DNA of 61,633 bases, filler included, from Stramenopiles sp. TOSAG23-2 (lineage: Eukaryota), in assembly GCA_900128395.1 (NCBI GenBank). It is 8 parts of 8 records of this genome, joined end to end, with 100 filler letters (N's around TTAATTAATTAA, not from the genome) between each part and the next. Parts side by side here need not be neighbours in the genome. Positions count along the whole stretch, not along the records: positions 22,845 to 34,152 come from LT649946.1; 7 more parts are not named here. One strand, 5' to 3'. Shown in pieces: positions 2,590 to 54,469 of the stretch. The notes below the pieces were generated by a model. It saw nothing but the letters and a program-made list of their open reading frames with translations, was not told the origin of the DNA and searched no databases. Made by a program: the position numbers and the translations under genes. Numbering within the stretch: position 1 is the stretch's first letter; each line of letters starts with the position of its first letter.

Positions 2590-3411
2590 ATGGAGCGTAA
2601 TGATCCTTTATCTATTAATGTAAACACACACGAAAACGGAAAAATTAGTTCTAGTGAGAATAGTGTAATGACTGATTCTTTTTCATCAGAAAACGATCGT
2701 GTGGGTGTAAAGATGAATACGTTCAAGCTTAATAATTATTGGAACAACAAGAATGAAAAGTTGGTTGCCGAGTTGGGTGAAAAGTCTAATGCGTATCAAT
2801 GGTTACATAACAAGTCTGCGAGGAGATATTTTGGTTTGGACAAGATTATAGGTGTGGTGATTACTATATTGGCGGCTATAGTGTCTATTGAATCACAATT
2901 ACCTCAGAACGAGTCGTTTCGTATTATAACGAATATTTTAAAGTTTATGATTTTTGTGGTGAGTTCTATTAATATATTCTTAAACTATCAAGAGTTGTCT
3001 GAAAAGCATAAACAATCTGGTGTAAAGTTTCAGAATTTGTACAATAGGATTGAGGAAGAGGTGTCTCAATACAAGCAATTGCGTAGTAATGCGGTGGAGT
3101 TTTTGCGTGATTGTAACAAGGTGTATACGTCTGTGATATCAGAATCTCCAAATATTTCTGCGCGTGAATTAAAAGAGTTTAAGAATACGTTCAAGAATAG
3201 TTCTATATCAAAGCCTACTATTTTGGATTCATTGACTCATATTGTACCGGTGAAATCAAAAGGTATAGAAAGAGGTACACCATTGCAAGATATGGCTGAG
3301 AATTTGTGTACGGTTGTAAAGATAACGGATGATATAACGGACGAGGACATTATTAATATAAAGTCTGAGCAATTGAAATTTCAGACAGAGAGACTAATGA
3401 ATCAGATCTAA
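2590..3411 (+). CDS. SLATT-like two-transmembrane protein (type common in giant viruses)
   Basis: W..K.EK...ELGEKSNAYQWLHNKSARRY, then two hydrophobic helices (IIGVVITILAAIVSI; ILKFMIFVVSSINIFL), then LSEKHKQSGVKFQNLY. Confidence 0.65.
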   Translation: MERNDPLSINVNTHENGKISSSENSVMTDSFSSENDRVGVKMNTFKLNNYWNNKNEKLVAELGEKSNAYQWLHNKSARRYFGLDKIIGVVITILAAIVSIESQLPQNESFRIITNILKFMIFVVSSINIFLNYQELSEKHKQSGVKFQNLYNRIEEEVSQYKQLRSNAVEFLRDCNKVYTSVISESPNISARELKEFKNTFKNSSISKPTILDSLTHIVPVKSKGIERGTPLQDMAENLCTVVKITDDITDEDIINIKSEQLKFQTERLMNQI

Positions 3412-6158: not shown

Positions 6159-7793
6159 TTAGTAATCGTCAGTGTAAGTTACTGAAAAGTTAATTTCATT
6201 TATATTTTCAGACTCTGCTGTTATTATAAAACATTCGTTTTGATAAAGATACAACTTGTCTGTGAAATCTATATATACTTGATCTTCTTTTGGTATGTAT
6301 ATGGATTCCAAGAGTAGTCCATTTGTAAATGTGTTTGAAGAATAACTGACTAACCCAATAGAATTAGTTTCATTTATATAATTGTAATTTAGATAATCAT
6401 CTGTTTCAAGTAATGAAATAGTCTCTGGATTTTTATAGATTCGTATAATAACTGGTTTGGACCCATGTGTTATAATGGAAATACGTTTTACTATAATCTC
6501 ACTTTGGTTAGAGAAACCATTGTATGTGTTTCTATTTTTTAAAGTAGATAGAACGACTTCTGTTTTTTTCGGTATTGATATTAGATTTGAAAAACTATGT
6601 GTTGGTGTATATAATATTTTTTGTCCTAAATATCCAGCATAACTTCCAGAAATAATAATAGTAATGGGTGTGGTACTTCCAAGAGATGCTACACCTTGTT
6701 GTAAATACATATTTGGAGATGTTAAACTAGGGGTAGTGGATGTGTTTGCGAATGAAAGAGTGTGTACAGTTTCATATATGCTCGTATCTGGATTATAGAC
6801 CTTGAATAAAACATTTCCAGACCCGTACCATGAATATTCTATAGCGTACATATTTCGTTTAAGAGGATCTAGTACACTTACCATACTACTAGATCCATTC
6901 CAATTTGTTCTATTAGTGAATGATGTAGATAGACTTGTTCCTTGTGTTTTTTGAGAAAATGTACCTGTAGCATTACCGTTGGAAGTAAATGAAAAGGTGT
7001 TTGTGTTTGGTCCTACATGTCGTGATTGAAATATAATAGTTGTTCCTATTGCCTCTACATTCCATCCATCATACGTAGTTCCATAAGCAATTTGTGATGT
7101 TGTGTAGTTTAAATCCCCATTTGCGTCGTCTAAATCAACTGTAAATTCAGTACCGTTAAGAGTAACTGTACCTGTTTTATTATTACTAGATTCATCATTG
7201 GTTATTGTTAATATACGTATTTCGGATTTACCATCTGTTGATATTCTAGTTCCGAATTCCGTACCATTGTAACAAAAGTATAAATCACTATTTCCATTAC
7301 CAACTCCTCCGAATTGCAAAGAATTTGCAATTGGTGTATCAAATATCATATTTACACGTATAACGGTGGAAACACCTGGTCTGTATTTTATGACTTTTAG
7401 ACATCTTATGACTGAATAACTATATAGATCATTTTGGATTGAAACATCAAGTTCGCAACCATTAATATTTGGGGAACTAGTACCACCATTTGAACAAAAA
7501 CATGTTGTTAGTTGCGTGTTTAATATACCATACAAGAAATAAGTTTGAAAAATTGGTGCTGTTTGGTTTATTTGCAATTCTCCAAACATGTTTTTTTCAC
7601 CAGCATTTACTGACAGTTCTCCATTTATATTTGTATTACCTTGGCTTGTGATTGTATCTATAATGGTTGTTAATGAACTATCTATTGAATGTCCGTTATT
7701 GTTTGGGCAAACTGTGGGTGTTGATTCATCCCAAACATATGTGTAAACTGTCTCGGTGGTACAATAAATACGATAGCGATTTAGTGTGCTCAT
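6159..7793 (-). CDS. Putative virion structural protein (544 aa) with one N-terminal CxTE...PxxCxNNNxH module
   Basis: Beta-rich, with YRPG, FCYNGTEFG and YSWYGSGNVLF segments reminiscent of phage/NCLDV structural hypotheticals. Confidence 0.6.
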   Translation of the reverse strand: MSTLNRYRIYCTTETVYTYVWDESTPTVCPNNNGHSIDSSLTTIIDTITSQGNTNINGELSVNAGEKNMFGELQINQTAPIFQTYFLYGILNTQLTTCFCSNGGTSSPNINGCELDVSIQNDLYSYSVIRCLKVIKYRPGVSTVIRVNMIFDTPIANSLQFGGVGNGNSDLYFCYNGTEFGTRISTDGKSEIRILTITNDESSNNKTGTVTLNGTEFTVDLDDANGDLNYTTSQIAYGTTYDGWNVEAIGTTIIFQSRHVGPNTNTFSFTSNGNATGTFSQKTQGTSLSTSFTNRTNWNGSSSMVSVLDPLKRNMYAIEYSWYGSGNVLFKVYNPDTSIYETVHTLSFANTSTTPSLTSPNMYLQQGVASLGSTTPITIIISGSYAGYLGQKILYTPTHSFSNLISIPKKTEVVLSTLKNRNTYNGFSNQSEIIVKRISIITHGSKPVIIRIYKNPETISLLETDDYLNYNYINETNSIGLVSYSSNTFTNGLLLESIYIPKEDQVYIDFTDKLYLYQNECFIITAESENINEINFSVTYTDDY

Positions 7794-8403: not shown

Positions 8404-11324
8404 TCATGTTAATCTCCATATTTCAATTCGTGCTTCTTTAATGGACGCAGAGGTATTTGTGGATGCTACTTTAAAATCTAAATCTATGGTATGAACTCCT
8501 AATGTTAACGAGATATGACTAAATCCAGATGTTGCGATATCTTGGTTACTTCTTTGTGTACTTTCTGTAGTTTCATGGATTACTAAAGAATCATCTATTT
8601 GAATTCTACTACTAAAATCTTGATTAGTGTTATCTATTGTCCATATATAATAAAAACCTACTCTATATATACCAGATGGTATATTATCAGTGACTAGACG
8701 TATTTTTTGTACATAATTGGTGCTATTAGTGCTTGTAGTGCTGGTGCTTTCTACATAATTTAGTTCAGTACCAAATATTACGAGACCTTGTTCTCCAACT
8801 GTCAATGGTTCTAGACGTAATATAGAAATACTGGTTCCTAAAGGAGCTACTCTTAAATTATTACCATCAAGGATAACACTTTGAAGTTTTATAATAGTTC
8901 CTGCAGAGAATTGAAAAGATCCATTAATGAATGATTGTTCCGTTCCGGTATTTGTATTCGTATGATAACTACAACTTTCTGTTCCAGCGACTTCAAAAAA
9001 ACCTTGTCCATTGTTTGCTACTAGTCTAGTTTTTGCATTAGATCTAGTAGTTCCGGAAGATTTTTCAATAGATACCTTGGCAAAGATAATATAACGTCCA
9101 TCTTCTTCTAGAGTTATTTGTGAAGAATTAGGTGTGTGTGTGTATTCAGTGTCTTTAAGTCTTTCTGTTTTGATAGGTATATCTATATAATTTGTATTCA
9201 AGGTTGTATTTCCGGTATCATTATAACCATCGAAATATTTTACAGAGGACTGACCCAAAGTAGAGGATAATTTGAGCACATTAAAGTTGCATCCGTTTAC
9301 AATTGTGGATGAAAGATTTGCTCCACTTTCTGTTATTGCTTGTATTTTTACTTTATCTCCAGTCAATGCTGAATATACACAATTAAAGATTGCGGTTTCA
9401 TCAGAATCTGGAGAATCATCGTTATGTATATAACTTCGGGTTCCTGGGATCTCTGTATACCCAGAGCCTGAATCAATAACCAATCTAATATTACTTTGTG
9501 TCTCAGTATTTGAATTAGTTCTAGTTGAGATATTACAATTGATTATATATATACCATCTTCTGTAATATCAAGTATTCCCGTGCTTGTATTATATGTGTA
9601 TATGGAATCTACTAAACGAGTAGTATTAAATAATACATCTGTATAACTTGTTGAGATATTTTGCGATGATGAAACATATGATGAAAAGAATTGAGAATTA
9701 TCGTTATTAGTATCAATAGATGGTTTGATGATAAGTAATTCTGATCCATTTTGGAGGCTCTTGATAGTTGACGATCCCGAGTCTCTTTTAAACTGTATTT
9801 TAATTTTTTCGTTAGAGGCGGCTTGGTAAATAAAGATGATACTAGATGTATTACATCCATTGTCGTCATCACGATTAAACATAAATGCTTGTGTTCCTGG
9901 GATTTCTGTGTACCCTCCTCCAGTATCAGATACTAATCGTACACTACTAGTGGAATTATTATTACCTGTTTCAACGAATGAAGTCATTCTGAAAGATATC
10001 AAAAATTTTCCAGGTAAATTGAACTCTATAATATTTTGTTCCAACAGAGAATGTGTATATATATCATCAATGCGTCTATCTGAATCGAACAAAAGATCTT
10101 GATATGAATCAGAAAAAGTCTGGGATCCGCTACTATACAAATTACAGTATTTGTTGGAGTTTGGGTCAGATCCTGTTCCACCTGTACCAGACGAAACATT
10201 TGCCCATTTAATTCCTGTAGGTTGTGATGCATCTACAGTAAGAACTTGTGATTCAGATCCTACTGATAGTTTTTCCTGTGTAGCACCATTGTGTGACAAA
10301 ACATCTCCCTTTGTATTTGTGGGTTGGTAAGTTGTGATTATTCCAGAATTATTTATTGATTTGAATAAATTATCTGTGGTATCAAGATAAAAATGTTGTG
10401 AAGTACTTGTTGAATTACTGGGAGTAGATGTTTTATTAAGAGTCATTACGTTAAGAATATCAAGGGAGTCTCCTATGAATACGTTTTTTTGTACAGCCAT
10501 TCCACCATTAATTTGCAGTGCTCCAGTGGTAATAGATGTACTATTTGTCGTTTCTGTGACTATAATTTGTCCTTTTGTGATATTTGATGTACTTGTTAAT
10601 ATGAGATTATCAGATGCTCCTGTACCGCCAAGAGCTATTTGACCTCCAGCACGTCCACCTAGTAATAAATACTGTGTATGATCATCATCACCTAAACCTA
10701 ATAAAGAACCATGATCAAAATCATCCCATTCAATACCACTTGAAATTACTGAATTTGCTCTCAACACTTGTCCGTCAGTGCCTATAGGTAATCTAATTAC
10801 GTTGCTTCCGTCTTCAACTAATATATCACCTTTTGTGGTTGTAACAGTGACTTGGTCAATTGTAACAGAATGTGGGTTACCAGTGGAGCTGATGTGTGAA
10901 TCTATTTGTGCATGTGTGTTAGTGCCTGCCCCGGACAAGTTTTGATGTACAATGTTGCCTTCATTAAGTGTGAGATCTACTTCTAAAGTATCAGAAACAA
11001 CGGAAATACGATCAGTGGTACTTGTGATGCTTTTGAATTCGAGATCATTACCAGTTTTTTGTTTAAAGACTCCTATACCTGCTCCAACATTACTTGCGGT
11101 GGCGTTACTAGATTCTGTTCCCCAAACAAGTCCAGAGGCTTCGGATGAGTCTGCCAACAACACTTGTCCGTCAGTACCTATAGGTAATCTAATGACGTTG
11201 CTTCCGTCTTCAACTAATATATCTCCTTTGGTGGTTGTAACAGTGATTTGGTCAATTGTAACAGAATGGGGGTTACCAGTGGAGCTGATGTGTGAATCTA
11301 TTTGTGCATGTGTGTTAGTGCCTG
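8404..11324 (-). CDS. Fibre/spike-like protein, 5'-partial: tail-fibre-like stalk repeats, three tandem C1q/BclA-CTD-like domains and a terminal beta domain
   Basis: The frame is open to the contig end at 11324; the track's start at 11163 is an internal TTG. Repeats TTKGDILV...RLPIGTDGQVL.A.S...G..W and GNPHSVTIDQ. Three ~145-aa domains share F....D..YT...G.Y.I...RLV...G.G..E..GT...IK.Q. Confidence 0.7.
10762..11324. repeat. Intragenic direct repeat: 10762-10928 and 11158-11324 (167 bp matched, 396-bp/132-aa period)
   Basis: Near-identical copies (caacacttgtccgtcagt...tgtgtgttagtgcctg) with mostly synonymous differences. The contig ends inside the repeat. Confidence 0.9.
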
Positions 11325-19676: not shown

Positions 19677-21945
19677 ATGGCAACAGTGCAAAATGCATCA
19701 CCATACAAAGATAATGCAGGTCCTACGGCAGGGGAAACAGTAGAAAATACAGACGATAGTTTCAATGATTCTAAAAGTATAGGATTAGACGGTGTAAGTA
19801 GAATAAATTACATATAATATATAATATATACATTAATAAATAAAAATAACTAACTTTTTTCCATATATTTATATATAATATATATATCAATAATAGAGTT
19901 CAGGACATTCACATTGTGATAAATGTAGATTTACAGCATACAATTTGGGCACAATTAATATGGCTGTCTTTTTAATAGGACTTCCCGGAATATATGTGCA
20001 GCAGCTCAGAGCCGATGCAAATTATATTGTACCGTTTGCGTTAACCTTACGAATTTATCTGATTTTCCTAAGCCTATTTCTAGGCTGGTTTCACGATGCT
20101 GAAATTCTTGCACCATGCTTGAACAAGATTGGGTGCGGACGAGAAAAAATGGGCAGACGTGCACCGCATCTGATTTATGCAACTATTTTCTTAACAACTG
20201 TTGGATTCTTTATGTATCGTCCTGCAAAATGGGCTGATCTATTAACAACAAGAGCGAGTGATGCTGCCATCTTGAAATATGGAAATGTGAGTTGGATACA
20301 ATATGGAAGTCATGACCAAATACCATATGATGTAAACGCTGCAATTCCTAAAAGTGGTTTTGATTGTAGCAAAAAAATGAAAGTTGGAACGAGTGATGGA
20401 ATCCTTCATTTCAATCGTACATTACCAAATCCATTTGGCGGCGCGGAAAATCCAGAAGCATTGGTATATGGAAATGATATTTGTGAAACGTTTGTATCAA
20501 AATTTTCTGTATGTTGGCCTGGACCATCAGGTGCAGAAGATGAAGGAGATGGTGGCAAGCGTGTATGTGCAAAAATTGCAAGTGATGTGCTTGGTATTCA
20601 ATTCTTTATAATTGGTCTATTTGGTTATTTTTTCCAAGAGACTATATGGCAAGCTGGAACTACTGCATCAGTTGAAGTATATCCATGGAAGGAAGAAAGA
20701 GTACAATTACGTGCATATGCAGCTCCAGTCTATGGATTCGGCTGGTTAATTTACCTTATTTTATTTCTATTTGTTGCTTCTCAACATGAAATTGCTGGGA
20801 GACCCAACGGCGCGATTGGATATCGAAATGGAATTGCCATAATTGTTTGCTGCTTTATGGTTTTCAACTTTTTATCTGTTGGACCATTCATGGATGCAAA
20901 GCAAGTATTTGGTAATGATGAAAAAGCAATTAATATATTCAGCGAATACAAGTCGCTCTTAACCGCAGAATCAGCAATACCAATACGATATCTTTGGGCA
21001 AATACTCTTTTAAGTAGTCTTGCATCTCAAATTTGGTTAACGTCATTCTGGTACTTGTGTTACTATGTATGGGGACTGAGCCGTGCGGAAGCACCGGGTC
21101 TTGTAGCGTTAGGATTCCTCTTAGCAATGCTTCTTAGCACGTGCTTCACATGTGTTTGGGGACAAGTTATATTTGGGACAAAATCAAAGAAAGGACGGGA
21201 GCATTCAAGAGATCCTAGAAAAATTGTTTTAATATCTGAAGTTTGTAGTATAATAGTAGGATTGATTGTATGGTTGACGTTATATCGACCAAGACCACTT
21301 GCTGATTTGAAAGCTGGAATAGTAACTGATGGATCGTTTCTTATACTTGCTTTTTGTATCAGTCCAATATTTGGATCCGTGTTAACGATGTGGGAAGCAT
21401 CTGCATATGGTTGGGCAAATGATTATGACAATCATTACCATGCTGATAAAGGAAGAAAAAGACGAGAATCGTATATTCGTGGGATATCTGCAACATGCAG
21501 GGGTATATGCACATTTATTGGACTAGGAATAGTGAATTCATTAACATTAGGTGAAAATCCTGTATGCAATACACAATTATCAACAAGACTACAAAACGAC
21601 GGGTGTCAAGGAGCTCTTTATACTATGAATATTACAGCTTTTCTTGTATGCCGCATATTACGTTTGTTTGTTATATATTTCTTTCCTATTCATGACGATG
21701 TTTTGCGAGAACTTTATAAAAATCAAGGTAAACATCATATGGCAAGACGAGATTCTAAGGCATGGAAGACGGTTAATGCTGACAAACCAGTTGAAATGCC
21801 TACTGCATCCAGTGCACCTGTTGTTGTAGTGAATTCAGCGCCAGTCATCGTTCAACAACCACCAATTATCGTTCAACAAAATGCACCAATAATTGTTAAT
21901 AAACAAGAGATCGCTAATGATGTAAAACCACAACAAGATGACTAA
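19677..21945 (+). CDS. MFS_2 (GPH, sugar:cation symporter-like) transporter; exons 19677-19793 and 19897-21945
   Basis: Multiple TM segments, GRRAPH and RKRRESY motifs, Cys-containing extracellular loop. Splicing joins a 39-codon first exon in frame to the large ORF. Confidence 0.75.
19794..19896 (+). other. Spliceosomal intron (103 nt, phase 0)
   Basis: GTAAGT donor, ACTAAC branch site near 19849, TAG acceptor; restores the reading frame. Confidence 0.85.
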
Positions 21946-23834: not shown

Positions 23835-24045
23835 AAAATTGACCTTGCCACAATATATATTTTCTATAATCTATGCATATCATCTCACTGAAATGGAAGA
23901 CAAATGATATATCGTGTACTGTTGTAGAATATGTTATATCATATGTTTCCTTATATATATATACGAATATATATCAATATTTAAAAATATTTATATGCTC
24001 GGCCAATATTATTTTTACCACAAATACTAAAATGTGTGAAATCGT

Positions 24046-25998
24046 TCACAACCCATCCGAATCTTCAGAATCTGTATTAAACCTTGGATCAAATAAAGTT
24101 GTTGCAGCATCTACCTTGACATCTAGTTCGCTATCAGAGTTGTTATAGTTGTTGACATTTTCAGAATTGTTAACATTTTCAAGAACACCTGTACATATGG
24201 AACCTTTAGAAAATTGGGCAAGAAAATGCCATCCACTTTCCTTCCTCTTGTATTCTATCTTCTCATTTTCTGTCAGGCTTTGCCATTGATGTGCATTTAT
24301 AAAGCATTTTGGCAGTTTTTCACCTTGGCTTTTTAATGCTAGTTTTGTTCGTCGCAATAAAACAGAATTGATATATCCTACGTTTCTCATATCTGTATCT
24401 TCAATATTTTTTTTGTCGGCACCTATCAGTTGTAAGTGAGCGGAGAAATCAGAAATTCTATTTTTCATGGGTGTCCCTGTGGCAGACCACTTAAAATCAC
24501 ATTTTAGCTGGCAGGCGTTGTCAAATCCATTCTTCATATTGTTGATCGCATGGGACTCATCAAGAATTAGCCGCCGCCAATCGATGGTCATAAGTTCAGC
24601 TGAATTATCACGCAGACGATGGTAGTTAGTGAGTACTATAGTTGGAAGTTCTCCTGCATTTCTCATGATAGTATCCACCGTTGGAAAATTCGACTTTGTA
24701 TGAAAATCGCCATGGTAAATAATAACTTTCATGCCAGGGATAAATTTCTTGCAGTCATCAATCCAAGAGTTGAAGACAGTTTTTGGCATAACAACAAGCG
24801 TGGGCTTGTTTTCTTGGTTAAGATCCAATTTAATAAGAGTAAGCAGCTGTAATGTCTTCCCAAGTCCCATGTCATCAGCTAATATGCCCCCTTTGATACC
24901 TCGTTGCCCTGGATTTTCTCCACGCTCCTGGCGTTGCATCCAGCGCACTCCGGTAAATTGATGGTTTTTGAGGGTAGCATTTATCCCAGCATTCAATATC
25001 TCAACATCAAACTCGCGTTTTAGAGAGGCATAATTGCTTCTTGATCTATATGTATGAAATTCAGCAATATCTACGGTATCTTCGGCAATACCAACGGTCT
25101 CTTCCCAGATCTTCTCTTTTTCATCCTGTTTTGCCTTTTTCATTTCATCGTTCAAAACTTTTACCCGAAAATGGTAGAAGTAGACAGCAGTGTGTGGTGA
25201 ACCAAGTCGCCAAATTCGGTCTCGAGCTTGCCATTCTAAGGCGGGACTCCATTTTGGATCAAGAATAAAAACAACATTTGCAGTTTGCAAATTAATACCA
25301 GCACCACATGTATCAATTTGACAAAATATAACTTGTGGTGAATCGTCTTTGTTGAATTTTTCTATAATTTTCATGCGATCGGAAGCTGTAACATCGCCAT
25401 CTATGCGTAAGGAACAATCAATATTTATTTTATTTTTGAAAGTTACCTGTGCTTGAGAGAGAACTTCTTTCCACGTCGAAAAGACAACAATTTTGTTACT
25501 AATTCCACTCACGCCTACATGTACTTTTCGTGGTTTAACAGCTTCATGAAAGTCTTCTAATGTTTTATTAGCCTCTTGTGACTTAAAGTGCCTCACATCA
25601 AGATATTCTTTGAACTCACCATCTTCTATATTATTGATTATTCGGTTAGCAATCTCAGCAGCTTCAAGTATCTTGCTTGTTGCTGCTGCAGTTTTCTTAA
25701 ATTTACCTTTCTCCCCAACTTCAACTTGTTTCTTGATGGTGTTGCTACTTTTTCGCTTTGAAAGTACTCTGCTTGGTGTTTCCATTTGACTCCTGTTGTT
25801 AATATTGTTATTACTTCCAACGTACTCTTCTAAAAATTCATACTTAATATTTCCAGTGATTTTCTCATCAATATTAAACCTACACGATTTATTCGCTGTA
25901 GAGTGTACAATTCCAACTTTACCTTTATATTTACCGTTTGTTATTATATATGTATCTCCTTTATTTACATTATCTTTTGCAAATCTTGGAGTTCCCAT
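24046..25998 (-). CDS. SNF2-family (Rad5/16/TTF2-like) ATPase with circularly permuted lobes and an N-terminal KOW-like motif
   Basis: N-to-C order: ITNGKYKGKVGIV; then helicase-C lobe (SKI, KIVVFSTW, RIDG, GAGINLQTANVVFILDPKWSP, QARDRIWRLG); then SNF2_N lobe (LKNHQ..GV.WM, GGILADDMGLGKT, TLVVMP, LTNY, ILDESH, ATGTPMKN, LLRRTK). Confidence 0.9.
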   Translation of the reverse strand: MGTPRFAKDNVNKGDTYIITNGKYKGKVGIVHSTANKSCRFNIDEKITGNIKYEFLEEYVGSNNNINNRSQMETPSRVLSKRKSSNTIKKQVEVGEKGKFKKTAAATSKILEAAEIANRIINNIEDGEFKEYLDVRHFKSQEANKTLEDFHEAVKPRKVHVGVSGISNKIVVFSTWKEVLSQAQVTFKNKINIDCSLRIDGDVTASDRMKIIEKFNKDDSPQVIFCQIDTCGAGINLQTANVVFILDPKWSPALEWQARDRIWRLGSPHTAVYFYHFRVKVLNDEMKKAKQDEKEKIWEETVGIAEDTVDIAEFHTYRSRSNYASLKREFDVEILNAGINATLKNHQFTGVRWMQRQERGENPGQRGIKGGILADDMGLGKTLQLLTLIKLDLNQENKPTLVVMPKTVFNSWIDDCKKFIPGMKVIIYHGDFHTKSNFPTVDTIMRNAGELPTIVLTNYHRLRDNSAELMTIDWRRLILDESHAINNMKNGFDNACQLKCDFKWSATGTPMKNRISDFSAHLQLIGADKKNIEDTDMRNVGYINSVLLRRTKLALKSQGEKLPKCFINAHQWQSLTENEKIEYKRKESGWHFLAQFSKGSICTGVLENVNNSENVNNYNNSDSELDVKVDAATTLFDPRFNTDSEDSDGL

Positions 25999-26485: not shown

Positions 26486-27535
26486 TTATGTTGCACAAGA
26501 TAAAGATTGATCCGCTTCGCATGTAAATCCAAATCGACCTCTATCTTTTTTGCATGCTTCGATTAAACCTTCATACGTTGCGGCGCATTTTCCATTTACA
26601 AATCGTGTTCCTTGTCCACAACATGTTTCTTTGAAACATTCATTTTTAGGATCACTTTCACATCTTTTCAAATCGACATACGGTATATTTTGTTCTATTC
26701 CTTCTTCCGGGATACATAACATCAATGTCATACCCCATGCGGAACTTTCTGCACCATTCGATTTCCAACAAAAAGTCTCCGAGTCTGTACGTAAAAAACA
26801 CTTCGGAGCACCATCAGGCCAAGAGTCACAATTTTGCATTGTAGCGCTACGCGTTGGATTCGCAGCTTTACATTCTTCTGCAGATGTAGGCTGTCTCCAG
26901 CCAGTTGGGCATTTGTTCGGCAACGCCCTTGAGCGTTGACCAGCCGTAGGACCAATTGAATTACATTTTACCTTTTCATACGGTAAAATATTTGATATTC
27001 GTTCATCAAATGTAGTCTTTGCGATACGAAAGGATGGAAGTTTCAAATTTTTATATGCTGGGGCACTGCATACAAATGAGTATGAATTATTTACCATATC
27101 TTCTGCTGGTGTCCCATAACCCGCGGCAAAGTAATCTCTTGCTACAACTTTATTGCAAGCTTCTCGATGACATGCAACTATGTCACTTCCGGACATGGCT
27201 GGTGTAGATGGATTAAAACCGAGTGCAACAAATGCCTGTGTTGTTGCCATAGCTACAGTAAGCTTACCCTTAGCAACATCTACCTTCCACATTGCAGTCG
27301 CCGCACTTCCATCCAAACCATTAGTAACGACAAGTTTTTGTTCATTGTAACCTGTATCATCAAAAGGCAAAGAGAATGGTAATTCATCGCCATGGGCGGA
27401 AGACAATGTTATTGGCATGAGTAAAAGCATGATCATAAAATAATAATACATATTGATATTATTATTTTTTGAACTACGATTATTTTTGAATAATTTCCAT
27501 TTATTATTATTATTATTATTATTATAATATTTCAT
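26486..27535 (-). CDS. Secreted protein with an apparently truncated DOMON domain and Cys-rich modules
   Basis: Hydrophobic signal segment, then W.V....LTVAM...FVALGFNP...MSGSDIV...RDYFA.GY..P..D (DOMON N-half), then a Cys-rich C-terminus. Confidence 0.65.
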   Translation of the reverse strand: MKYYNNNNNNNKWKLFKNNRSSKNNNINMYYYFMIMLLLMPITLSSAHGDELPFSLPFDDTGYNEQKLVVTNGLDGSAATAMWKVDVAKGKLTVAMATTQAFVALGFNPSTPAMSGSDIVACHREACNKVVARDYFAAGYGTPAEDMVNNSYSFVCSAPAYKNLKLPSFRIAKTTFDERISNILPYEKVKCNSIGPTAGQRSRALPNKCPTGWRQPTSAEECKAANPTRSATMQNCDSWPDGAPKCFLRTDSETFCWKSNGAESSAWGMTLMLCIPEEGIEQNIPYVDLKRCESDPKNECFKETCCGQGTRFVNGKCAATYEGLIEACKKDRGRFGFTCEADQSLSCAT

Positions 27536-30571: not shown

Positions 30572-33520
30572 TTATATTTTACTTCTTGTATCTTTGTGTT
30601 GATTTTTTATCTCGGCGCGTTCAACACTACAAATGTTAATATTTTTCAGTATATATTCCCCAGCTTGAACTTGATACACTTCCTTTCCAACTATGTCTAC
30701 AAAACCAATACTTCCATATGGAATTGAAAATGACCACGTAAACGTATCTCCGTTTTTATTATTATATCGCGTCCAATTGCTAACAATCTTACCACGTACG
30801 GTATTCAATGATATGTTAACACCTGGAAGACTTGGTGTTTCACATGGACAGCGTGGACGAAGTAAAATATGTGACCATCCAACACTATAAGATGCTTGAT
30901 TTATTCCACCTAAATAGCGAAACATCCATACAACAACAGATGAAAACATTGGATGATTATGGCTATACGTGTTATTTGAATAAAACCAACTTTCCCATAA
31001 TGTTGTTGCATTCATTTTCAACATATAACCATAGGACGGGTAATCCTCTCTTGTCATCATATTATAAGCAGTATTCAATGGAATTGATGATAATAACGGC
31101 AATATACAGAACATACCAACTGCTGATTGAGGCACCCCATTGCCTAATTCATATAAAGATAAATTTAACATCGACTTTACTGCAGGAACTGCATCTTTTG
31201 GAACTAGATCATAATATAGCGGCATGCTTTGGCTACATTGGCTTAAATTGAACGTTTTTGTATCTGTAAATGTTCCATTAGTTTGAAGAAATAACTGATT
31301 CATTCGATTTCTAACACGTCTCGCATCTTCTTCGGCAAGCTCTGCAATGTCCTTATATCCTAACACACGATTGATTTTGGACCATGCGTGGTAATTCATC
31401 CATTGAAATACATGCCCAGTTAAACGATGTACATTACCATTTGGTTCAACATTCATCCAATCCGAAAGCCCATTTTCAATTAACGATTCATCAACATGGT
31501 TTGAAAGCATATTCATCCACTTTTTGGTAGAATTATAGGAAGATTTTAAACTCGACGAGTCACTATAATAATCCCACATCCATGTTTGTAAAACTGGTTG
31601 GACAGTTGCCCATCCAATCGGCCCTGAACCATTTTTATCTACACCATTGTCATATATGCCAACATATGGACTTGTTTCTGTAAAACCACCATCGTTACGC
31701 TGTGCATCATTATAATCCAGTATTCGTTTGCGGTAAAAAGATAACATATTAAATATATGCATACCTGTTTCAGCTGTTGCTAATAAGTCACCACCATAAC
31801 CAAATCGTTCACGATGCGGGCAATCAGATTGAACAGACATCATATTTGAACTATGTGTGTTGTATGCCAAATTGAAAATTTTTTCTAATATATGTTTGTT
31901 TTCTTTCTTATCATTGCTTCTTGGAACTGAAAACGACCCATGAACATTGATGTCAGTGCGTAAAGCAATGCCAAAAATAGAGTGGATCGCAGAGCGAAGA
32001 TTTATCTTTTCATTATTTTTATTGTTGTTGCTTGTTGTTGATAGAGATACCGCAATATATCGAAATCCATGCCATGTAAATCTTGGCACATGGCTATATG
32101 TCTCATTTTCCCTTAAACCCTTTGTAATGAAAATATCTTTTTGATATGCAATATTTGGAGCACAATCCCCACCTTCACCAGGATGTTTAATTTGTCCAGC
32201 TACACTAGTCAATCCATTCACACTTCCATTACCCCATAACACTTCACCGTAAAGAAATTCAATGGATGTATTCATGGGTAATGGTCCTTGAAAAGTCACA
32301 TTAATGGTCCCAGCAAAATTTCTTCCCATGTCATACACAATTGCATCATCATCTTTGTCGTCATCTCCGTTGTTGCGATATGGAGATATTATTTTCCCAC
32401 TTAAATGTTCAAACGCTCGAATAGGTGGTAATCTTGATGCTTCTAGTACACCTAATGCACTCAAAATATGTTGTTTTACTACCATTACTCCCGTTTCTGA
32501 CCATATCTCCTTTTCACGACGCTGATCATATACACTTCCCAAATAAATATTGTTATTACTGTATGGCCCTGGGGATAACATCCATTTTCCATCTTCCTCA
32601 TCATTCCCTTTATTACTCGAGACAATTTTTTTTGTTCCATCATAATATTCTATCACAAGGTCAAGTCGAAACATTGGTGGTCCAGTTGCCAAGTCGTTTC
32701 GAAGATCTCTTTTACCCCACATTTTTAATGGGAGCAGGTTCCACCATCCATTACCTAATGATATCTTCAATGTATGGCTGGTATGTGTCTTATTAAGCCA
32801 TTCAGTAACATCAAGTGTGTTATAAGCTATACGTTTGGCAAACGATGTCCATTCCGGATCTAAAAACGTGTCACCTGGGACTGTAAAACCATTCAGCATT
32901 GTTCGGTAATAACCCAACCCAGCAATATATAGACGTGCACGTTTTACCTCCTTGTTTTCAGTCTTGAATTTTTTTTTAAAAATTGGATTCGGGTGATTTC
33001 CATATGGTGACGTGCTGCACTTGTTATTTTTACTTTCAGAATATCCTCCAGAATCGGTAGAATTGGCTGTTAACCAGATACCAGCCCAATCAGCTTCTTT
33101 TCTTGACATTTTAAACGTTTGTTTTCTGGACCATGCACTTGGTATATTTCCAGTCGTTTGGTCACCACCATGAATTTCTTTCCAAACTCTAACTCTCCAC
33201 TGAACTTCCTCATCAGCTTGAAGTTTTTTGCCTTGGTATGTTGCTGAGAGAGTATTATTAGTAACAACAAGTCCAGTTGTCCACGTTTCGTTATTTTCAT
33301 AGATTACTTCAATTTCATAAGCCGACTGTTTACTTCTTAAAACCCACGTCAAAGAGGGGGATTGCGTATTTACAACAACAAACGTTTTTGAGTATGAAGT
33401 TAGGGGAGAACGACCATCAACGAGAAGTTTATACGGCGACTTAATTGTTCTTTGGTCAACAGACCCTGCCATTGACATCAAGTGTACAATAATGAACGAT
33501 ATTAAAAACAACATTAACAT
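30572..33520 (-). CDS. GH78 alpha-L-rhamnosidase, secreted
   Basis: Signal peptide; ARLYIAGLGYY, DMGRNFAG, FTWHGFRY, SDCPHRERFGYGGD, ATTLWESW and SHNHPMF motifs. Confidence 0.92.
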   Translation of the reverse strand: MLMLFLISFIIVHLMSMAGSVDQRTIKSPYKLLVDGRSPLTSYSKTFVVVNTQSPSLTWVLRSKQSAYEIEVIYENNETWTTGLVVTNNTLSATYQGKKLQADEEVQWRVRVWKEIHGGDQTTGNIPSAWSRKQTFKMSRKEADWAGIWLTANSTDSGGYSESKNNKCSTSPYGNHPNPIFKKKFKTENKEVKRARLYIAGLGYYRTMLNGFTVPGDTFLDPEWTSFAKRIAYNTLDVTEWLNKTHTSHTLKISLGNGWWNLLPLKMWGKRDLRNDLATGPPMFRLDLVIEYYDGTKKIVSSNKGNDEEDGKWMLSPGPYSNNNIYLGSVYDQRREKEIWSETGVMVVKQHILSALGVLEASRLPPIRAFEHLSGKIISPYRNNGDDDKDDDAIVYDMGRNFAGTINVTFQGPLPMNTSIEFLYGEVLWGNGSVNGLTSVAGQIKHPGEGGDCAPNIAYQKDIFITKGLRENETYSHVPRFTWHGFRYIAVSLSTTSNNNKNNEKINLRSAIHSIFGIALRTDINVHGSFSVPRSNDKKENKHILEKIFNLAYNTHSSNMMSVQSDCPHRERFGYGGDLLATAETGMHIFNMLSFYRKRILDYNDAQRNDGGFTETSPYVGIYDNGVDKNGSGPIGWATVQPVLQTWMWDYYSDSSSLKSSYNSTKKWMNMLSNHVDESLIENGLSDWMNVEPNGNVHRLTGHVFQWMNYHAWSKINRVLGYKDIAELAEEDARRVRNRMNQLFLQTNGTFTDTKTFNLSQCSQSMPLYYDLVPKDAVPAVKSMLNLSLYELGNGVPQSAVGMFCILPLLSSIPLNTAYNMMTREDYPSYGYMLKMNATTLWESWFYSNNTYSHNHPMFSSVVVWMFRYLGGINQASYSVGWSHILLRPRCPCETPSLPGVNISLNTVRGKIVSNWTRYNNKNGDTFTWSFSIPYGSIGFVDIVGKEVYQVQAGEYILKNINICSVERAEIKNQHKDTRSKI

Positions 33521-45642: not shown

Positions 45643-48318
45643 CCAAAACCGAGACCTAGACCTCGCCCAAGGCCAAGACCGAGACCTCGCCCAAGGCCAA
45701 AACCGAGACCACGCCCAAGCAAGAAAAGGAAGAAAAGGAATATTGAGAAGGATTGCATTCTTTTCACAAAATCGCAAGAAACAAAAACGCTCATAAGCAA
45801 AGGCAGCCGCGAAGAGTGTGTAGAAAAATGCCGCTCACTTCAAAGTCAGCGTAAAGCATTTCGTAGGTGTCTGTTTGGTGAAGAAGTATTGGTAAGGCAA
45901 AAAAGAAGGCGTTTGGTAATCAAGAAGAAACAATCAAAAAATAAATGTCGAAGTGACAATGATTGCAAGAAATTTCGTTCAAAAGGTGTACAATTTGGTT
46001 GTTTCTATCTTACGAAAACAGAAGGTGTGTGCAAGGCAAATGTAAGAAAATGTAAATCCAAGGCAGACTGTCCCAAAGGTCACAAATGTAGAAATAGACA
46101 AGGAAATGCATACGGTGTGTGTATACATCGTGGAAAAATACGCGGGGATGCTAAATACAATGTTGCAATAAACGTATTTTCGCGGTTAGCTGCAAAGGAA
46201 GGAAAAGACAAGAATGATAAGCAAGACCATACGTCATTGGACGCTTATTTTGCTGTACCTTTGATTGAGGAAGGGGATGATGATTTTGATATATGTGATG
46301 AGGGCGAAGAAGTTAAAATGATGATAGATGATAAGGAGGAAAACCAACAACAAAACCACAATCGTGATGGAGACGGCACGGCCAAAAATGATGAAGTTAG
46401 AGACAGCACGAATCAGATGAGACAAATGCTCGATCGTCGCTCAAACGAAGGAACGAATAAGATAGTTTCTCCGGTTGCCAGTACAATTGCAAAAAAAACA
46501 CAACTTACTGGCTCAATGAAAAGTAAAAATAACCATGCACCTGGAGCGTTCCAAAAGGGAAAAGAAAGAAAAAAACAAAATATTCGAGGAGACGATTTCA
46601 CTTTTTTGCAACTTTTCAAAAAGCAAAGTTTAGCAAGCTCAGACTTTTATGGTACTTGCAACGCAGCATTGCCCAATTCTGCCAAGCAGACGCTTTTCTG
46701 TTCTGACCCAGTGGAGCGTGATCGGTTTACAAATAGTAAACCGTTGGGTAGGTTGAAGTTAATTCACGTGCTTGTGGCCAATACTGCGGGTGAAATTTTG
46801 GGGGAATCGAAAATATCAAACATTGCTGGACTTTTGGAAGGAGGACAAGCAGATGCCTCGCGAATCTTCGAACGCAATCTTGGCATAACAATTGACAGTA
46901 AAATGGTGGTCCACGAAATTGTAGACAACGACATGTACAATTTTTACAATAAATATATAAATCAAATACAACTGTCCGATGACGCAGCGGCCGAAGTATA
47001 CAGTAAAGTGTTCGAACATTATGATGATGCAAAGGCGTCTTTGCTGTCTCAAGGGGTACCTGTTGACTCCGCGTTTATGATTTTCTGGAATATTGGCGGC
47101 TATGCTGGTTTAGCTACTTCAGCATTGCATACTGGAGTGCCAAGAATCTGGATGAATATAAATAATTACGCAAACCAAGGAAGCTGGACATATCCTTACA
47201 TGGGTAGGGTTCTTGCTCATGAAATTGCGCATGTGTTAGACATACACCATACTCATAAAATAGAAGATGTCGAAGGAAATTTATGTAAATGCACGTCGTT
47301 TGATGCAGAATTTTCTAACTTCGATGATATGCGTGGGGATTTGATCCGTGATACCCCTCCAGAGCCAAAAATGTCAAAGTTTAGAAATATTGTTACAAGT
47401 TTCATGGATACACAGGTCGATTACGTAATGGGCGAAGATGTTCGTATGGGAGTTGGTGATCATCCAGAAGCAGATGACCCAGGTGATTCTGAAGGAAATA
47501 AAGGGAAAGGAGGGGGAAAGAAGAAAGGAGGGAAAAAGAAGAAAGGAGGGAAAAAGAAGAAAGGAGGGAAAAAGCGACCAAGACCTCGCCCGAGACCTAG
47601 ACCTAGACCAAGACCAAGACCAAGGCCAAGACCTAGGAAGAAGAACAGAGGTAGAAGGTTGCTCTCCCGGCGACATACTAACAAGGCTGCTTTCAACGTG
47701 TTGATAAGGCAAAATTGGGATATACCAATTAAATTGAAAATTACAAATCAGCTGAAAAACGATGTGCAGAAATACATGGATGAGCTTATCATACCAGCTG
47801 TTTACATACCTCATATTCTAGATTTAGAAGCAAAATTTTTAGAACAAAGTGGATTTACTTATGGAATTCAGACCACTCGGGAGGACAACGATATTTGTTA
47901 TGATTATGTGAAGCAGGTAAAACATCCTCGTAAAGACATACTTTCGCTCAATATTATGAGCTATGGCGTTGGAGTGGGGCTATCCGATACTACAAGAGTT
48001 CGATTTACGAATCAACAAAAAGCCCGTATGTTCTGCGTTTTAAGCCAGGTTCCAGAACTAAAACAAATATTACCGACTACAACAACAACTGCTGACAAAA
48101 CAGTTCTAGAGAAAGACTGTTTGGAGGCTGCAAAAAAACAGTTTCCTGCAGATCACATAGTTACATTGAGCAGCGGGAAGTTTAATGGTGGTTCTTTGCC
48201 CAATGGGTGTAGTCATACAACAACCAACAGAATGCTGAGCACGATTGCATTCTACAACCGTGTGAAAACTAATCCTGGCACTGTCGATCCACAATACCAA
48301 CTAGTCACAAGGTTGTAA
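45643..48318 (+). CDS. Metzincin metalloprotease (M43/pappalysin-ulilysin-like) with poly-PR and Lys/Gly tracts; 5'-partial
   Basis: The frame is open from the contig start (PKPRPRPR...). Zinc motif LAHEIAHVLDIHHT, DLIRDTPP, Met-turn NIMSY followed by FTNQQKARM; Cys-rich N-terminal modules. Confidence 0.8.
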   Translation, partial: PKPRPRPRPRPRPRPRPRPKPRPRPSKKRKKRNIEKDCILFTKSQETKTLISKGSREECVEKCRSLQSQRKAFRRCLFGEEVLVRQKRRRLVIKKKQSKNKCRSDNDCKKFRSKGVQFGCFYLTKTEGVCKANVRKCKSKADCPKGHKCRNRQGNAYGVCIHRGKIRGDAKYNVAINVFSRLAAKEGKDKNDKQDHTSLDAYFAVPLIEEGDDDFDICDEGEEVKMMIDDKEENQQQNHNRDGDGTAKNDEVRDSTNQMRQMLDRRSNEGTNKIVSPVASTIAKKTQLTGSMKSKNNHAPGAFQKGKERKKQNIRGDDFTFLQLFKKQSLASSDFYGTCNAALPNSAKQTLFCSDPVERDRFTNSKPLGRLKLIHVLVANTAGEILGESKISNIAGLLEGGQADASRIFERNLGITIDSKMVVHEIVDNDMYNFYNKYINQIQLSDDAAAEVYSKVFEHYDDAKASLLSQGVPVDSAFMIFWNIGGYAGLATSALHTGVPRIWMNINNYANQGSWTYPYMGRVLAHEIAHVLDIHHTHKIEDVEGNLCKCTSFDAEFSNFDDMRGDLIRDTPPEPKMSKFRNIVTSFMDTQVDYVMGEDVRMGVGDHPEADDPGDSEGNKGKGGGKKKGGKKKKGGKKKKGGKKRPRPRPRPRPRPRPRPRPRPRKKNRGRRLLSRRHTNKAAFNVLIRQNWDIPIKLKITNQLKNDVQKYMDELIIPAVYIPHILDLEAKFLEQSGFTYGIQTTREDNDICYDYVKQVKHPRKDILSLNIMSYGVGVGLSDTTRVRFTNQQKARMFCVLSQVPELKQILPTTTTTADKTVLEKDCLEAAKKQFPADHIVTLSSGKFNGGSLPNGCSHTTTNRMLSTIAFYNRVKTNPGTVDPQYQLVTRL

Positions 48319-52723: not shown

Positions 52724-54469
52724 TTACAAGCCCTGCATGGAATTGGCCCGTCCCCTTTTGTTGGAGTGTCCTCCACCTTCATCCTGTCCTAAATTCACAT
52801 ACCGCTTATCACTAAGAATCAACCTAAGCCAACCATTAACAGTCTCTCTAGGAGCTTCAGGACAAGCTAGTAGATGGTTTTTAATATGATCATTTTTCCT
52901 GGTATGCCTTTTCTCAATTTTTTTTTCAACTGCATGAAACATTTTTTTGCAGAATTTGCACTTAAATATGGGTGTACATGTTACTGCTGGGCAGCAGTCT
53001 TTATTGCCACACTTTACAGTAATTGGTCTTCTACTAGGCTTCTGGTTTACCCACTTTTCCAGTGCTTTTGCATTAGGACATATCCTATCAAGGCAGACCT
53101 TACCGTCACAATTGGCGAACCTTCTCGGGTTGCAATTTAGCCATTCTTTTGAAGAGGCCTTGTAACATACCGGGCACTGGATGGTATCGTCATTAACGCC
53201 AGCCTCTTCTGCTAAGTCCTTACATATCTTGTCCACATCTTCTGGTTTCATAATATTATCAGCTATATAATCCTTTAACTCAATACATTCCATATTAATA
53301 AATATTTCAAGTGACCACTTACGTTTTTTTTTTGACTGTCCATTGTTAGTGATTTGACTCTGACTTGCTTCAGAAGCTATTAACTCATAAAGATTATCAT
53401 GTGGTATATTTACATATACAATGGCATGGATTGGCCCATCGTCCTCGTGGGAATACTCCTCCAAAAGTTGTAATATGTAATCATTTTTTTTGTTTTGAGG
53501 GCAAATAAATTCCATATAATCCGTACTTTTGTTGTCTGCTACTCGAGCTAATTTTTCGATCCATAGAGAAGGCTGTAAATCATCAACCATTTCCATGAAC
53601 GTTTCCCGATTTTGTGGGAATCTTTTGTACCCGCCATATTCTTCATTGAGCCGTATTCCGGCTTCATTAGATTCAACCAAAAACCTAGTATTAAGATGAA
53701 TATGATACCATTTACAAGCCGTCGTATGTTCCTTCATATGTTTCTTTAAATTTTCCAGCTTCCTACACACAGGGACGGCTACTAGATCGAAATCCTTTAA
53801 CCGTTCAAAATAGTTTTTGTTACTATCTGTGGATGCTGGCAATTGCAACCAATTTAGTTCTTTCATTGCATCTCGTACAAGAGATAATTTTCTCTCCGTT
53901 AAAATGGTTTTAATCATTTTTGTCTTCTTTGTATCGTACCTTGACAAATCTCGAACCACGTTGAAGCCATTTAAGCCTAATATTTCTCGGAGAAGGCTTA
54001 AAGCTGATTTTTTTGAGTTTACATTTGATTCGTTCGTTTGCTCTTCAAATCTTTTCTCAAAATTGTCACGAGTCTCAAATAACTCGTTTTTGTGGGGTTC
54101 AGTGACAAAAAATTCAACAGCGTAAAGATTGCCAGTTTCTTCTAGGCTCATTTGCTCCAAAACGTATACCGGGGCGTTTCCTATATCGTAAATCATGCTA
54201 CCGGCTGCGAAAGAAAAAGGAAAATCTTCATAACATTTTTTAATTGTGGCAACAGCAGTTTTTCCATAGACAAATATTCTCTTAATGCAATATGGTGATG
54301 TATTAGAAATATTACATAAACAACAAATATGAAAACGTAAATTAGGAAAATCTTGGTGTAATTTTTGATTAAAATTATCAGCATGATTAATTTTTTCTTT
54401 TAGTACTAAGAAAATCAAAATATGGAAATTGATATCTGGACTAATAGAATACGATGTAGATGATGCCAT
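52724..54469 (-). CDS. Orphan protein with C-terminal PHD-like and BED-like zinc fingers
   Basis: CPVC...WLNC...CDGKVC...C...CGNKDC, then CKFC...NHLLAC; basic KKKRK; N-terminal two-thirds unrecognised. Confidence 0.6.
   Translation of the reverse strand: MASSTSYSISPDINFHILIFLVLKEKINHADNFNQKLHQDFPNLRFHICCLCNISNTSPYCIKRIFVYGKTAVATIKKCYEDFPFSFAAGSMIYDIGNAPVYVLEQMSLEETGNLYAVEFFVTEPHKNELFETRDNFEKRFEEQTNESNVNSKKSALSLLREILGLNGFNVVRDLSRYDTKKTKMIKTILTERKLSLVRDAMKELNWLQLPASTDSNKNYFERLKDFDLVAVPVCRKLENLKKHMKEHTTACKWYHIHLNTRFLVESNEAGIRLNEEYGGYKRFPQNRETFMEMVDDLQPSLWIEKLARVADNKSTDYMEFICPQNKKNDYILQLLEEYSHEDDGPIHAIVYVNIPHDNLYELIASEASQSQITNNGQSKKKRKWSLEIFINMECIELKDYIADNIMKPEDVDKICKDLAEEAGVNDDTIQCPVCYKASSKEWLNCNPRRFANCDGKVCLDRICPNAKALEKWVNQKPSRRPITVKCGNKDCCPAVTCTPIFKCKFCKKMFHAVEKKIEKRHTRKNDHIKNHLLACPEAPRETVNGWLRLILSDKRYVNLGQDEGGGHSNKRGRANSMQGL

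Follow-up and report, generated by a model that had tools for sequence, protein, structure and literature searches.

The minus-strand gene at positions 24046 to 25998 of a 61,633-nucleotide stretch of DNA from the protist Stramenopiles sp. TOSAG23-2 (assembly GCA_900128395.1) encodes a circularly permuted SNF2 ATPase, in which the helicase C-terminal lobe (lobe 2) precedes the ATP-binding lobe (lobe 1) in a single chain of 650 amino acids (aa). The whole stretch, called the window below, consists of eight parts joined end to end, and the gene lies in the part taken from record LT649946.1. Snf2 enzymes are the motors of chromatin remodelling, repair and transcription termination, and their mechanism is commonly put down to two RecA-like lobes that move about a conserved hinge, under regulation by flanking elements. 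The permutation is confirmed by the matches described below; judging from sequence, this is probably a nuclear, single-exon, expressed protist gene whose product works as a translocase on double-stranded DNA.

Lobe order and parts of the protein

Pfam hidden Markov models place Helicase_C at aa 167-266 (E 4.7e-19; 69.1 bits against a cutoff of 23.5) and SNF2-rel_dom at aa 346-529 (E 8.7e-36; 123.9 bits against 24.9), which bears out, far beyond chance, the original prediction that the helicase-C lobe stands ahead of the ATP-binding lobe. Solved structures are matched as two blocks in exchanged positions: residues 341-525 of the protein correspond to residues 200-379 of Arabidopsis DDM1 (7ux9_P) and residues 166-278 to 539-649, while positions 324-577 of the family profile correspond to residues 29-281 of the Sulfolobus SNF2 core (1z63_A) and positions 155-304 to 339-486. 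Profile positions 104-293 match residues 618-818 of 8he5_O. A tblastn comparison of six canonical SNF2 proteins with the whole window matched this gene alone, as two swapped blocks, and found no further SNF2 exons or fragments elsewhere in the window; NCBIfam models gave only partial matches, all far below their cutoffs. Once rotated, the segments are colinear with canonical proteins (DDM1, 1z63_A and the relative P0149, discussed below), the old termini being joined through aa 281-339 and the new termini falling in the old internal connection. The usual Snf2 order, with lobe 1 N-terminal to lobe 2, is reversed; because this is a variant feature, the protein is classed as a permuted derivative and not as a standard Snf2 member.

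The open reading frame (ORF) starts with ATG, contains no internal stops and spans the coordinates given above, in agreement with the single stop-free ORF of 650 aa that had been claimed. The motif positions reported with it are exact: the first residue of the SKI helix is aa 108 (25677), motif VI QARDRIWRLG is aa 257-266 (25230-25201), Walker A DDMGLGKT is aa 375-382 (24876-24853) and Walker B DESH is aa 480-483 (24561-24550). The limits proposed for the ORF need one correction: its start is not directly ahead of the SKI helix, which is preceded by 104 aa comprising a KOW-like barrel and a low-complexity spacer. At the other end, some 65 aa follow the LRRTK..LP..E..Y segment. The features are as follows.

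24046-25998, minus strand: entire single-exon coding sequence of the permuted SNF2 protein, with 650 aa and a stop (ORF scan, RNA-library contigs, EukProt gene model).
25819-25968, minus strand: KOW-like beta barrel, aa 11-60 (sub-cutoff Pfam match; KOW of relatives; four strands in the AlphaFold2 model, at a predicted local distance difference test score, pLDDT, of 82-86).
25687-25815, minus strand: low-complexity spacer, aa 62-104, predicted to be disordered (pLDDT below 50) and poorly conserved.
25504-25686, minus strand: pre-motif-IV helices, aa 105-165, the TSKILEAAEIA helix first (match to 8he5_O; modelled helix at 108-121).
25159-25503, minus strand: lobe 2 core, aa 166-280 (Helicase_C; conserved motifs).
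24982-25158, minus strand: post-motif-VI helix, aa 281-310, and new linker, aa 311-339 (alignment with 1z63_A; modelled helices at 284-301 and 320-336).
24409-24981, minus strand: lobe 1 core, aa 340-530 (SNF2-rel_dom; conserved motifs; structural alignment).
24229-24408, minus strand: shortened post-motif-III helical segment, aa 531-590, with LLRRTK, LPKC, E579 and Y583 (conservation; 1z63_A).
24049-24228, minus strand: acidic, Asn-rich C-terminal tail, aa 591-650, predicted to be disordered (pLDDT 29-32) and poorly conserved.

The helices at aa 105-165 correspond to the segment that directly precedes motif IV in canonical proteins. They represent what was the lobe-2 end of the inter-lobe connection, and aa 531-590 represent its lobe-1 end (the family profile up to position 577 corresponds to 1z63_A up to residue 281). 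The old C-terminus of lobe 2 is tied to the old N-terminus of lobe 1 by aa 281-339, where the profile up to position 304 aligns with the post-motif-VI segment of 1z63_A and the linker itself amounts to about 30-40 aa. In canonical SNF2 proteins the position of the post-motif-VI helix is called the brace and the post-motif-III elements are called protrusions. The candidates for these Snf2 helical elements, LLRRTK..LP..E..Y and the post-motif-VI helix, are conserved within the family, the first in shortened form, and both have low confidence in the model. The new linker includes a 21-nucleotide tandem repeat (25060-25104; 2.1 copies, 83% matches) whose translation gives two nearly identical heptads, TVGIAED and TVDIAEF (aa 301-314).

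The full set of Snf2 motifs (Q, I, Ia, II, III, IV, V and VI) is present, with the catalytic Lys, the Asp-Glu pair and the arginine fingers. Lobe 2 carries motif IV KIVVFSTW, RIDG, motif V GAGINLQTAN and motif VI QARDRIWRLG with R261 and R264; lobe 1 carries the Q motif LKNHQ, a family-specific WMQRQERGENP, Walker A, motif Ia, Walker B and motif III TGTP. Retention of the catalytic residues, as originally claimed, extends to all 13 family proteins, in which they are invariant or nearly so: H346, Q347, G378, G380, K381, T382, D480 and E481 in lobe 1 and G232, G234, N236, Q257, A258, R261, W263 and R264 in lobe 2 are invariant, and G508, T509 and P510 of motif III, E125 and F129 before motif IV, and L548, R549, R550, T551, K552, L562, C565, E579 and Y583 after motif III are nearly so. 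Because the catalytic residues are invariant among proteins of 30-68% identity, neutral decay does not account for the family. Two blocks are family-specific: WMQRQERGENP stands after the Q motif and ahead of Walker A, and RIWRLxSPH replaces the usual ending of motif VI. Mean pairwise identity is 0.48-0.50 in the lobe cores (0.50 in lobe 2), 0.33 in the post-motif-VI helix and 0.18-0.22 in the N-terminus and spacer, the new linker and the tail (0.18 with a gap fraction of 0.31 for aa 1-104; 0.21 for the tail). The distance from R264 of motif VI to H346 of the Q motif ranges from 77 to 115 aa and is 77-84 aa in 10 of the 13 proteins.

An AlphaFold2 model from a 13-row alignment has a mean pLDDT of 63.5 and a predicted template modelling score (pTM) of 0.44; pLDDT is mostly 70-90 in the lobe cores, 82-86 in the barrel at aa 11-60, and below 50 at 62-104, 282-318 and 551-650. 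The top 50 Foldseek rows are all SNF2-type ATPases, each with 218-346 aligned columns, and VIA-align superposes model residues 294-558 (lobe 1) on solved SNF2 ATPases at Z 19.7-22.5, with a root-mean-square deviation (rmsd) of 2.4-4.0 A over 186-229 residues.

The KOW-like cap proposed for the new N-terminus finds partial support in two relatives and in the modelled barrel, and falls short of Pfam cutoffs in the protein itself (P0001), which scores 12.1 bits for KOW (PF00467; cutoff 22.3) and 18.2 bits for KOW5_SPT5 (cutoff 27). P0002 (26.7 bits) and P0006 (23.3 bits) exceed the KOW cutoff, and P0005 scores 19.1 bits and P0007 14-15.7 bits; KOW-like modules thus stand at the N-terminus of five of the 13 members, two past the Pfam cutoff, and the N-termini of the other members differ. 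Since aligned relatives lie above the cutoff and a small barrel is modelled, the module is named KOW-like. This accessory module probably targets the motor. P0002 holds two KOW copies, each of which aligns to the single copy of the window gene (25773-25983), and P0006 appears by eye to have a second copy, Pfam listing the first alone at residues 5-26. A contig of the seawater DNA run X3 steps back by 211, from 25983 to 25773, which could reflect a tandem KOW duplication in a related strain. At the other end of the chain, P0005 and P0008 have in common a Cys-rich extension in their C-terminal 130 or so residues (CP.C....WP.WA...SAKETA.SQC), for which no Pfam family was found at E up to 0.5.

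The permuted family and its origin

Among 5.8 billion clustered proteins, eleven colinear relatives (P0002-P0012; 34-67% identity) rank ahead of canonical SNF2 proteins; when 1.84 billion representatives were scanned exhaustively, P0125 and near-identical fragments joined them. Both Snf2 Pfam domains score above their gathering thresholds in the window protein and in all 12 homologues, and Helicase_C precedes SNF2-rel_dom in each of these closest homologues (30-68% identity); the order sought in other proteomes is therefore present in 12 of 12. Among 357 proteins, 20 have lobe 2 before lobe 1 (the window protein, its 12 relatives and cluster mates), 323 have lobe 1 before lobe 2, one has tandem cores, 11 are fragments with one lobe and two have neither lobe. 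The family profile scores 11 members at 648-868 bits and the best canonical protein at 283 bits, and found no additional members among 8000 candidates scored.

Members come from JGI, ENA, Logan, EukProt and MMETSP data, many of them on contigs of 2.2-3.7 kb, and the haptophyte Chrysotila (Pleurochrysis) carterae has a complete member transcript, known in UniRef merely as 'Helicase C-terminal domain-containing protein'. The member sequences are already public, under automatic names alone. Among the matches listed from 80 IMG/VR and 80 metagenome loci, which were chosen by family alignment and do not include the contigs of true relatives, 153 are canonical, seven have lobe 1 alone and none is permuted. 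A scan of IMG/VR with family-specific motifs gave eight matches, none of them in SNF2 genes. No description of a permuted SNF2 or SF2 helicase was found in the open-access literature, where the matches concern permuted methylases, GTPases, S subunits, RNA-dependent RNA polymerases and genomes; as far as that literature goes, the arrangement is apparently undescribed.

Separate FastTree phylogenies of the two lobes (256 rows each), an analysis that the original prediction had proposed, place the 13 permuted proteins in one clade with support of 100 for lobe 1 and 95 for lobe 2. Neither tree has a canonical protein inside this clade, and its internal topology is the same in both; a single clade per lobe with matching topology indicates that the permutation occurred once and that the lobes have stayed together ever since. 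In an IQ-TREE phylogeny of concatenated cores (53 rows, 370 columns) the permuted clade has support of 99, and a split with support of 98 separates 20 bacterial-type rows from 33 rows that comprise the permuted clade and all RING-bearing, RING plus HIRAN, and TTF2 proteins. These sequence comparisons provisionally suggest an affinity with Rad5/16-like proteins (RING-bearing and TTF2) rather than with bacterial types. The grouping reportedly takes its names (Rad5/HLTF, Rad16, SHPRH and TTF2/lodestar) from Flaus et al. 2006.

The RING-bearing SNF2 proteins and TTF2, as nearest canonical relatives, have a W..QE...GGILADDMGLGKT block in common with the permuted family, placed before and at Walker A; canonical P0187 shares the WM..QE.G.N..GGILADDMGLGKT block with the family. 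The family differs from Rad5/16-like proteins in its reversed lobes, KOW-like N-terminus, SPH ending of motif VI and shorter post-motif-III segment. Pfam found no RING in the window protein or its 12 homologues, so that the inserted RING of Rad5/16-like proteins is missing, and RING and HIRAN domains are found in none of the 13 members. TTF2/lodestar is likewise not known to have a RING, and the absence of one alone is therefore no bar to this grouping. Among relatives, a RING lies at residues 327-367 of P0149 and at 382-427 of P0187 (26.3 bits, just under the cutoff of 27). P0149 (SNF2-RING-Helicase_C) is matched by aa 334-562 at its residues 12-225 and by aa 149-266 at its residues 389-504. 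Because the RING of P0149 lies in the unmatched gap between these swapped blocks, the chain was opened where the original prediction had put the cut, at the site where Rad5/16-like proteins insert their RING. A ranking of canonical matches by lobe-specific score was tried and set aside; it gave a negative correlation that reflects match selection alone.

Most likely the family would have arisen from a Rad5/16-like gene that was duplicated in tandem, or split and fused again, and was cut at the RING site of its relatives. P0127 (KAJ3321623.1) of the chytrid Boothiomyces sp., a chain of 1833 aa, has the order lobe1-lobe2-lobe1-lobe2, with lobe 1 at 573-754 and 1327-1507 and lobe 2 at 934-1033 and 1676-1808; as two tandem SNF2 cores, it indicates that nature does hold an intermediate for duplication and trimming. 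With 28-30% identity it is no specific relative; it is not the sister in either lobe tree, and some 290 aa separate its internal lobe 2 from the lobe 1 that follows, where the permuted family has about 80 aa. Either P0127 is a genuine double motor, or a gene model has joined two tandem genes.

The best solved match of the family profile is the Sulfolobus solfataricus SWI2/SNF2 core (SSO1653; 1z63, 1z6a), at E 2.1e-69 and 238 bits. This is a minimal two-lobe translocase on double-stranded DNA, similar in size to the permuted proteins and, unlike them, canonical in order; lobe 1 of the model superposes on it at Z 21.1 and an rmsd of 2.8 A over 200 residues.

The gene in public data and its surroundings

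Twenty of the 24 public runs listed (12 studies) contain the stretch, and six are recorded as RNA. Four runs were compared along the gene, three of RNA (X15, X16 and X17) and one of DNA (X3). Contigs of the three RNA libraries (three studies) cover the gene in colinear order, without joints, between about 23980 and 26062; being contigs, they attest presence and colinearity and not transcript ends or levels. The lobe junction, which the original prediction had singled out for such a check, is covered by X15 (record 1, 23980-25072; record 2, 25049-25584) and X17 (24803-25012, and 24986-25345 in record 14), and the poly-A library X16 contributes further pieces. A EukProt gene model also has 650 aa, of which 635 are identical (98%). 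No outcome that the original prediction had named as refuting it was seen, and its reading of the gene as a functional permuted translocase and not debris is supported. The pieces from the DNA metagenome X3 are short, in part dissimilar, and joined at 23935/23980, 23995/24390 and 25983/25773; this run was used neither for nor against the assembly.

The window is eukaryotic nuclear DNA, compact, rich in A+T and poor in introns. Upstream on the same strand is an unrelated gene for a DOMON-domain protein, ending at 26486, and the downstream neighbour is convergent. Proteins encoded elsewhere in the window include PP2A B56, VPS9, PH-domain, DnaJ, MFS and ribosomal L6e proteins; the closest named relatives of the B56 protein are those of oomycetes, diatoms and a pelagophyte, at about 50-53% identity, which points weakly to an uncultured protist of the sea that resembles stramenopiles. 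The SNF2 gene has a G+C content of 0.372, a third-position G+C content (GC3) of 0.312 and codon usage that correlates with the rest at r 0.86, all within the range of 20 other ORFs. Scans of the window for tRNA genes and Rfam families gave no matches, and a scan for sigma-70 promoters and terminators found sites no commoner than in shuffled sequence, such signals not being relevant to a eukaryote.

Several other ORFs of the window are of separate interest. A 982-aa ORF at 30572-33520 on the minus strand has all five domains, in the architecture of a bacterial-type alpha-L-rhamnosidase (GH78), amid eukaryotic genes, and may be an old horizontal acquisition. The 273-aa product of an ORF at 2590-3411 on the plus strand matches SLATT_5 below threshold (26.4 bits against a cutoff of 29.5); this effector domain with two transmembrane segments belongs to conflict systems of prokaryotes. 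For five long ORFs, of 544-919 aa, Pfam gave no family at E up to 0.001: 19945-21945 (plus), 8404-11163 (minus), 45889-48318 (plus), 6159-7793 (minus) and 52724-54469 (minus), the third of these being the most GC-rich part of the window.

Proposed mechanism, alternatives and significance

In the proposed mechanism, both lobes would fold back together within one chain, and Walker A and B of lobe 1 would form the ATP cleft with R261 and R264 of lobe 2; chain order would be irrelevant to the cleft because it is made of two separate RecA-like folds. The enzyme would hydrolyse ATP on duplex DNA and track along it as other Snf2 enzymes do. The tether would have changed, the old inter-lobe hinge having been cut to give two termini and the old C-terminal helix fused to the Q motif, and the accessory KOW module would now be terminal, at the old RING site. 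On balance, and by a slight preference, the family may be taken as an undescribed Snf2 subfamily of monomeric DNA translocases in which the hinge is severed, the lobes are re-tied from the post-motif-VI helix to the Q motif, and a KOW module occupies the RING site. It is possible, though doubtful, that the enzyme acts on transcribing RNA polymerase, an idea prompted by the parallels of TTF2/lodestar, CSB and Mfd, the last of which binds polymerase through a KOW-like domain.

Very large movements of the lobes are tolerated in known Snf2 cores: in the crystal of the Sulfolobus core, lobe 2 is turned through 180 degrees when compared with zebrafish Rad54, and this difference between crystals implies a large movement about the very hinge that is cut in the permuted family (PMC1616948).

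Several observations weigh against parts of this interpretation. The group nearest to the permuted clade consists of three short, long-branched proteins that include P0149, with support of 82, in a tree that took in relatives returned by the searches alone and left out Snf2-like, Swr1-like and Rad54-like references; the lobe-2 tree leaves the placement of the family among canonical proteins undecided, and raw scores against solved structures put DDM1 or the archaeal core above Rad5. With a pTM of 0.44 and pLDDT below 50 at 282-318 and 551-650, the model does not fix the packing of the lobes or the path of the new linker. Both structure aligners are sequential and match one lobe per match, as expected when such an aligner meets a permuted protein; this is compatible with permutation and says nothing of two-lobe packing. 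The KOW assignment of the window protein lies below Pfam thresholds, motif VI ends in SPH and not GQ, and the post-motif-III helical segment is shortened; either the SPH ending or the shortened segment could alter coupling. Among 18 single-base variants in environmental contigs, 12 are non-synonymous and six synonymous (21% would be synonymous by chance); in small numbers, synonymous and non-synonymous variants stand at 3 and 1 in the lobe cores and at 1 and 9 in residues 1-165.

The cut hinge, which holds the lobes together in canonical proteins, and the partly low-confidence new tether would also fit a pairing of lobes between chains, in a head-to-tail dimer or filament, with the protein as an obligate oligomer. 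This is unlikely: the constant spacing of motif VI and the Q motif in most members suggests a defined connection within the chain, and about 80 residues should be ample to span adjacent lobes. A homodimer prediction from two copies of aa 105-599 scored 0.00 against a mark of 0.42 and is evidence neither way.

A shade less likely again is a catalytically dead or degenerating derivative, serving as a scaffold that binds DNA or protein or left as a relic of a rearranged tandem SNF2 pair. The SPH ending, the shortened segment and the excess of non-synonymous variants could be read in this way, as could the I in place of T507, directly before the GTP of motif III, in one 98%-identical relative; but all 13 proteins, some with as little as 30% identity, keep Walker A and B, the Q motif, motif V and the two arginines of motif VI without change, the non-synonymous variants cluster outside the lobe cores, the gene occurs in RNA libraries of three studies, and members occur, at the least, in haptophytes and in a protist of stramenopile-like kind.

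The rarity and patchiness of the family would suit the recent acquisition and endogenisation of an SNF2 helicase gene from a giant virus, and in the ESM Atlas the clusters closest in language-model features are SNF2 helicases of Nucleocytoviricota (550-600 aa; score 0.95). These matches, to SNF2 helicases of nucleocytoplasmic large DNA viruses and of animals, carry neither an alignment nor a domain order and serve as a lead only. Given that none of the 80 related IMG/VR loci is permuted among the matches listed, that none of the motif-scan matches is SNF2, and that base composition and codon usage resemble those of neighbours that are cellular housekeeping genes, such an acquisition is highly improbable. 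Scarcely credible is an artefact, whether a chimera of assembly, such as single-cell amplification can produce, or the tail of one SNF2 gene fused to the head of the next in a gene model: one run flagged as a possible DNA source, at 21 million letters, does fit a small data set of single-cell type and the X3 contigs are short with odd joints, but 12 homologues from five data sources and a 98%-identical gene model of equal length have the same order, RNA contigs of three studies tile the junction, no other SNF2 fragment occurs in the window and the flanking genes are unrelated.

Rotated motif orders with function kept are known from circularly permuted GTPases. They are also described for DNA methyltransferases (PMC7824862), and permuted repeats with function kept for Type I S subunits (PMC3874165). 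Whereas in these systems the rotation lies within one fold or concerns repeats, in the permuted SNF2 family two whole RecA-like lobes are swapped.

The permuted SNF2 ATPase is thus a domain-level circular permutation in a molecular motor, of use for studies of protein evolution, and its family tests which covalent connections the motor needs. If the proposed mechanism is true, the covalent hinge would be dispensable for Snf2 mechanochemistry, and the family would constitute a natural experiment on the way in which the tethering of the lobes determines coupling and regulation. For engineering, the protein is also a compact scaffold whose two termini both lie at the site of accessory domains. 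Annotation pipelines that assume SNF2_N before Helicase_C may take permuted proteins of this kind for fragments or fusions.

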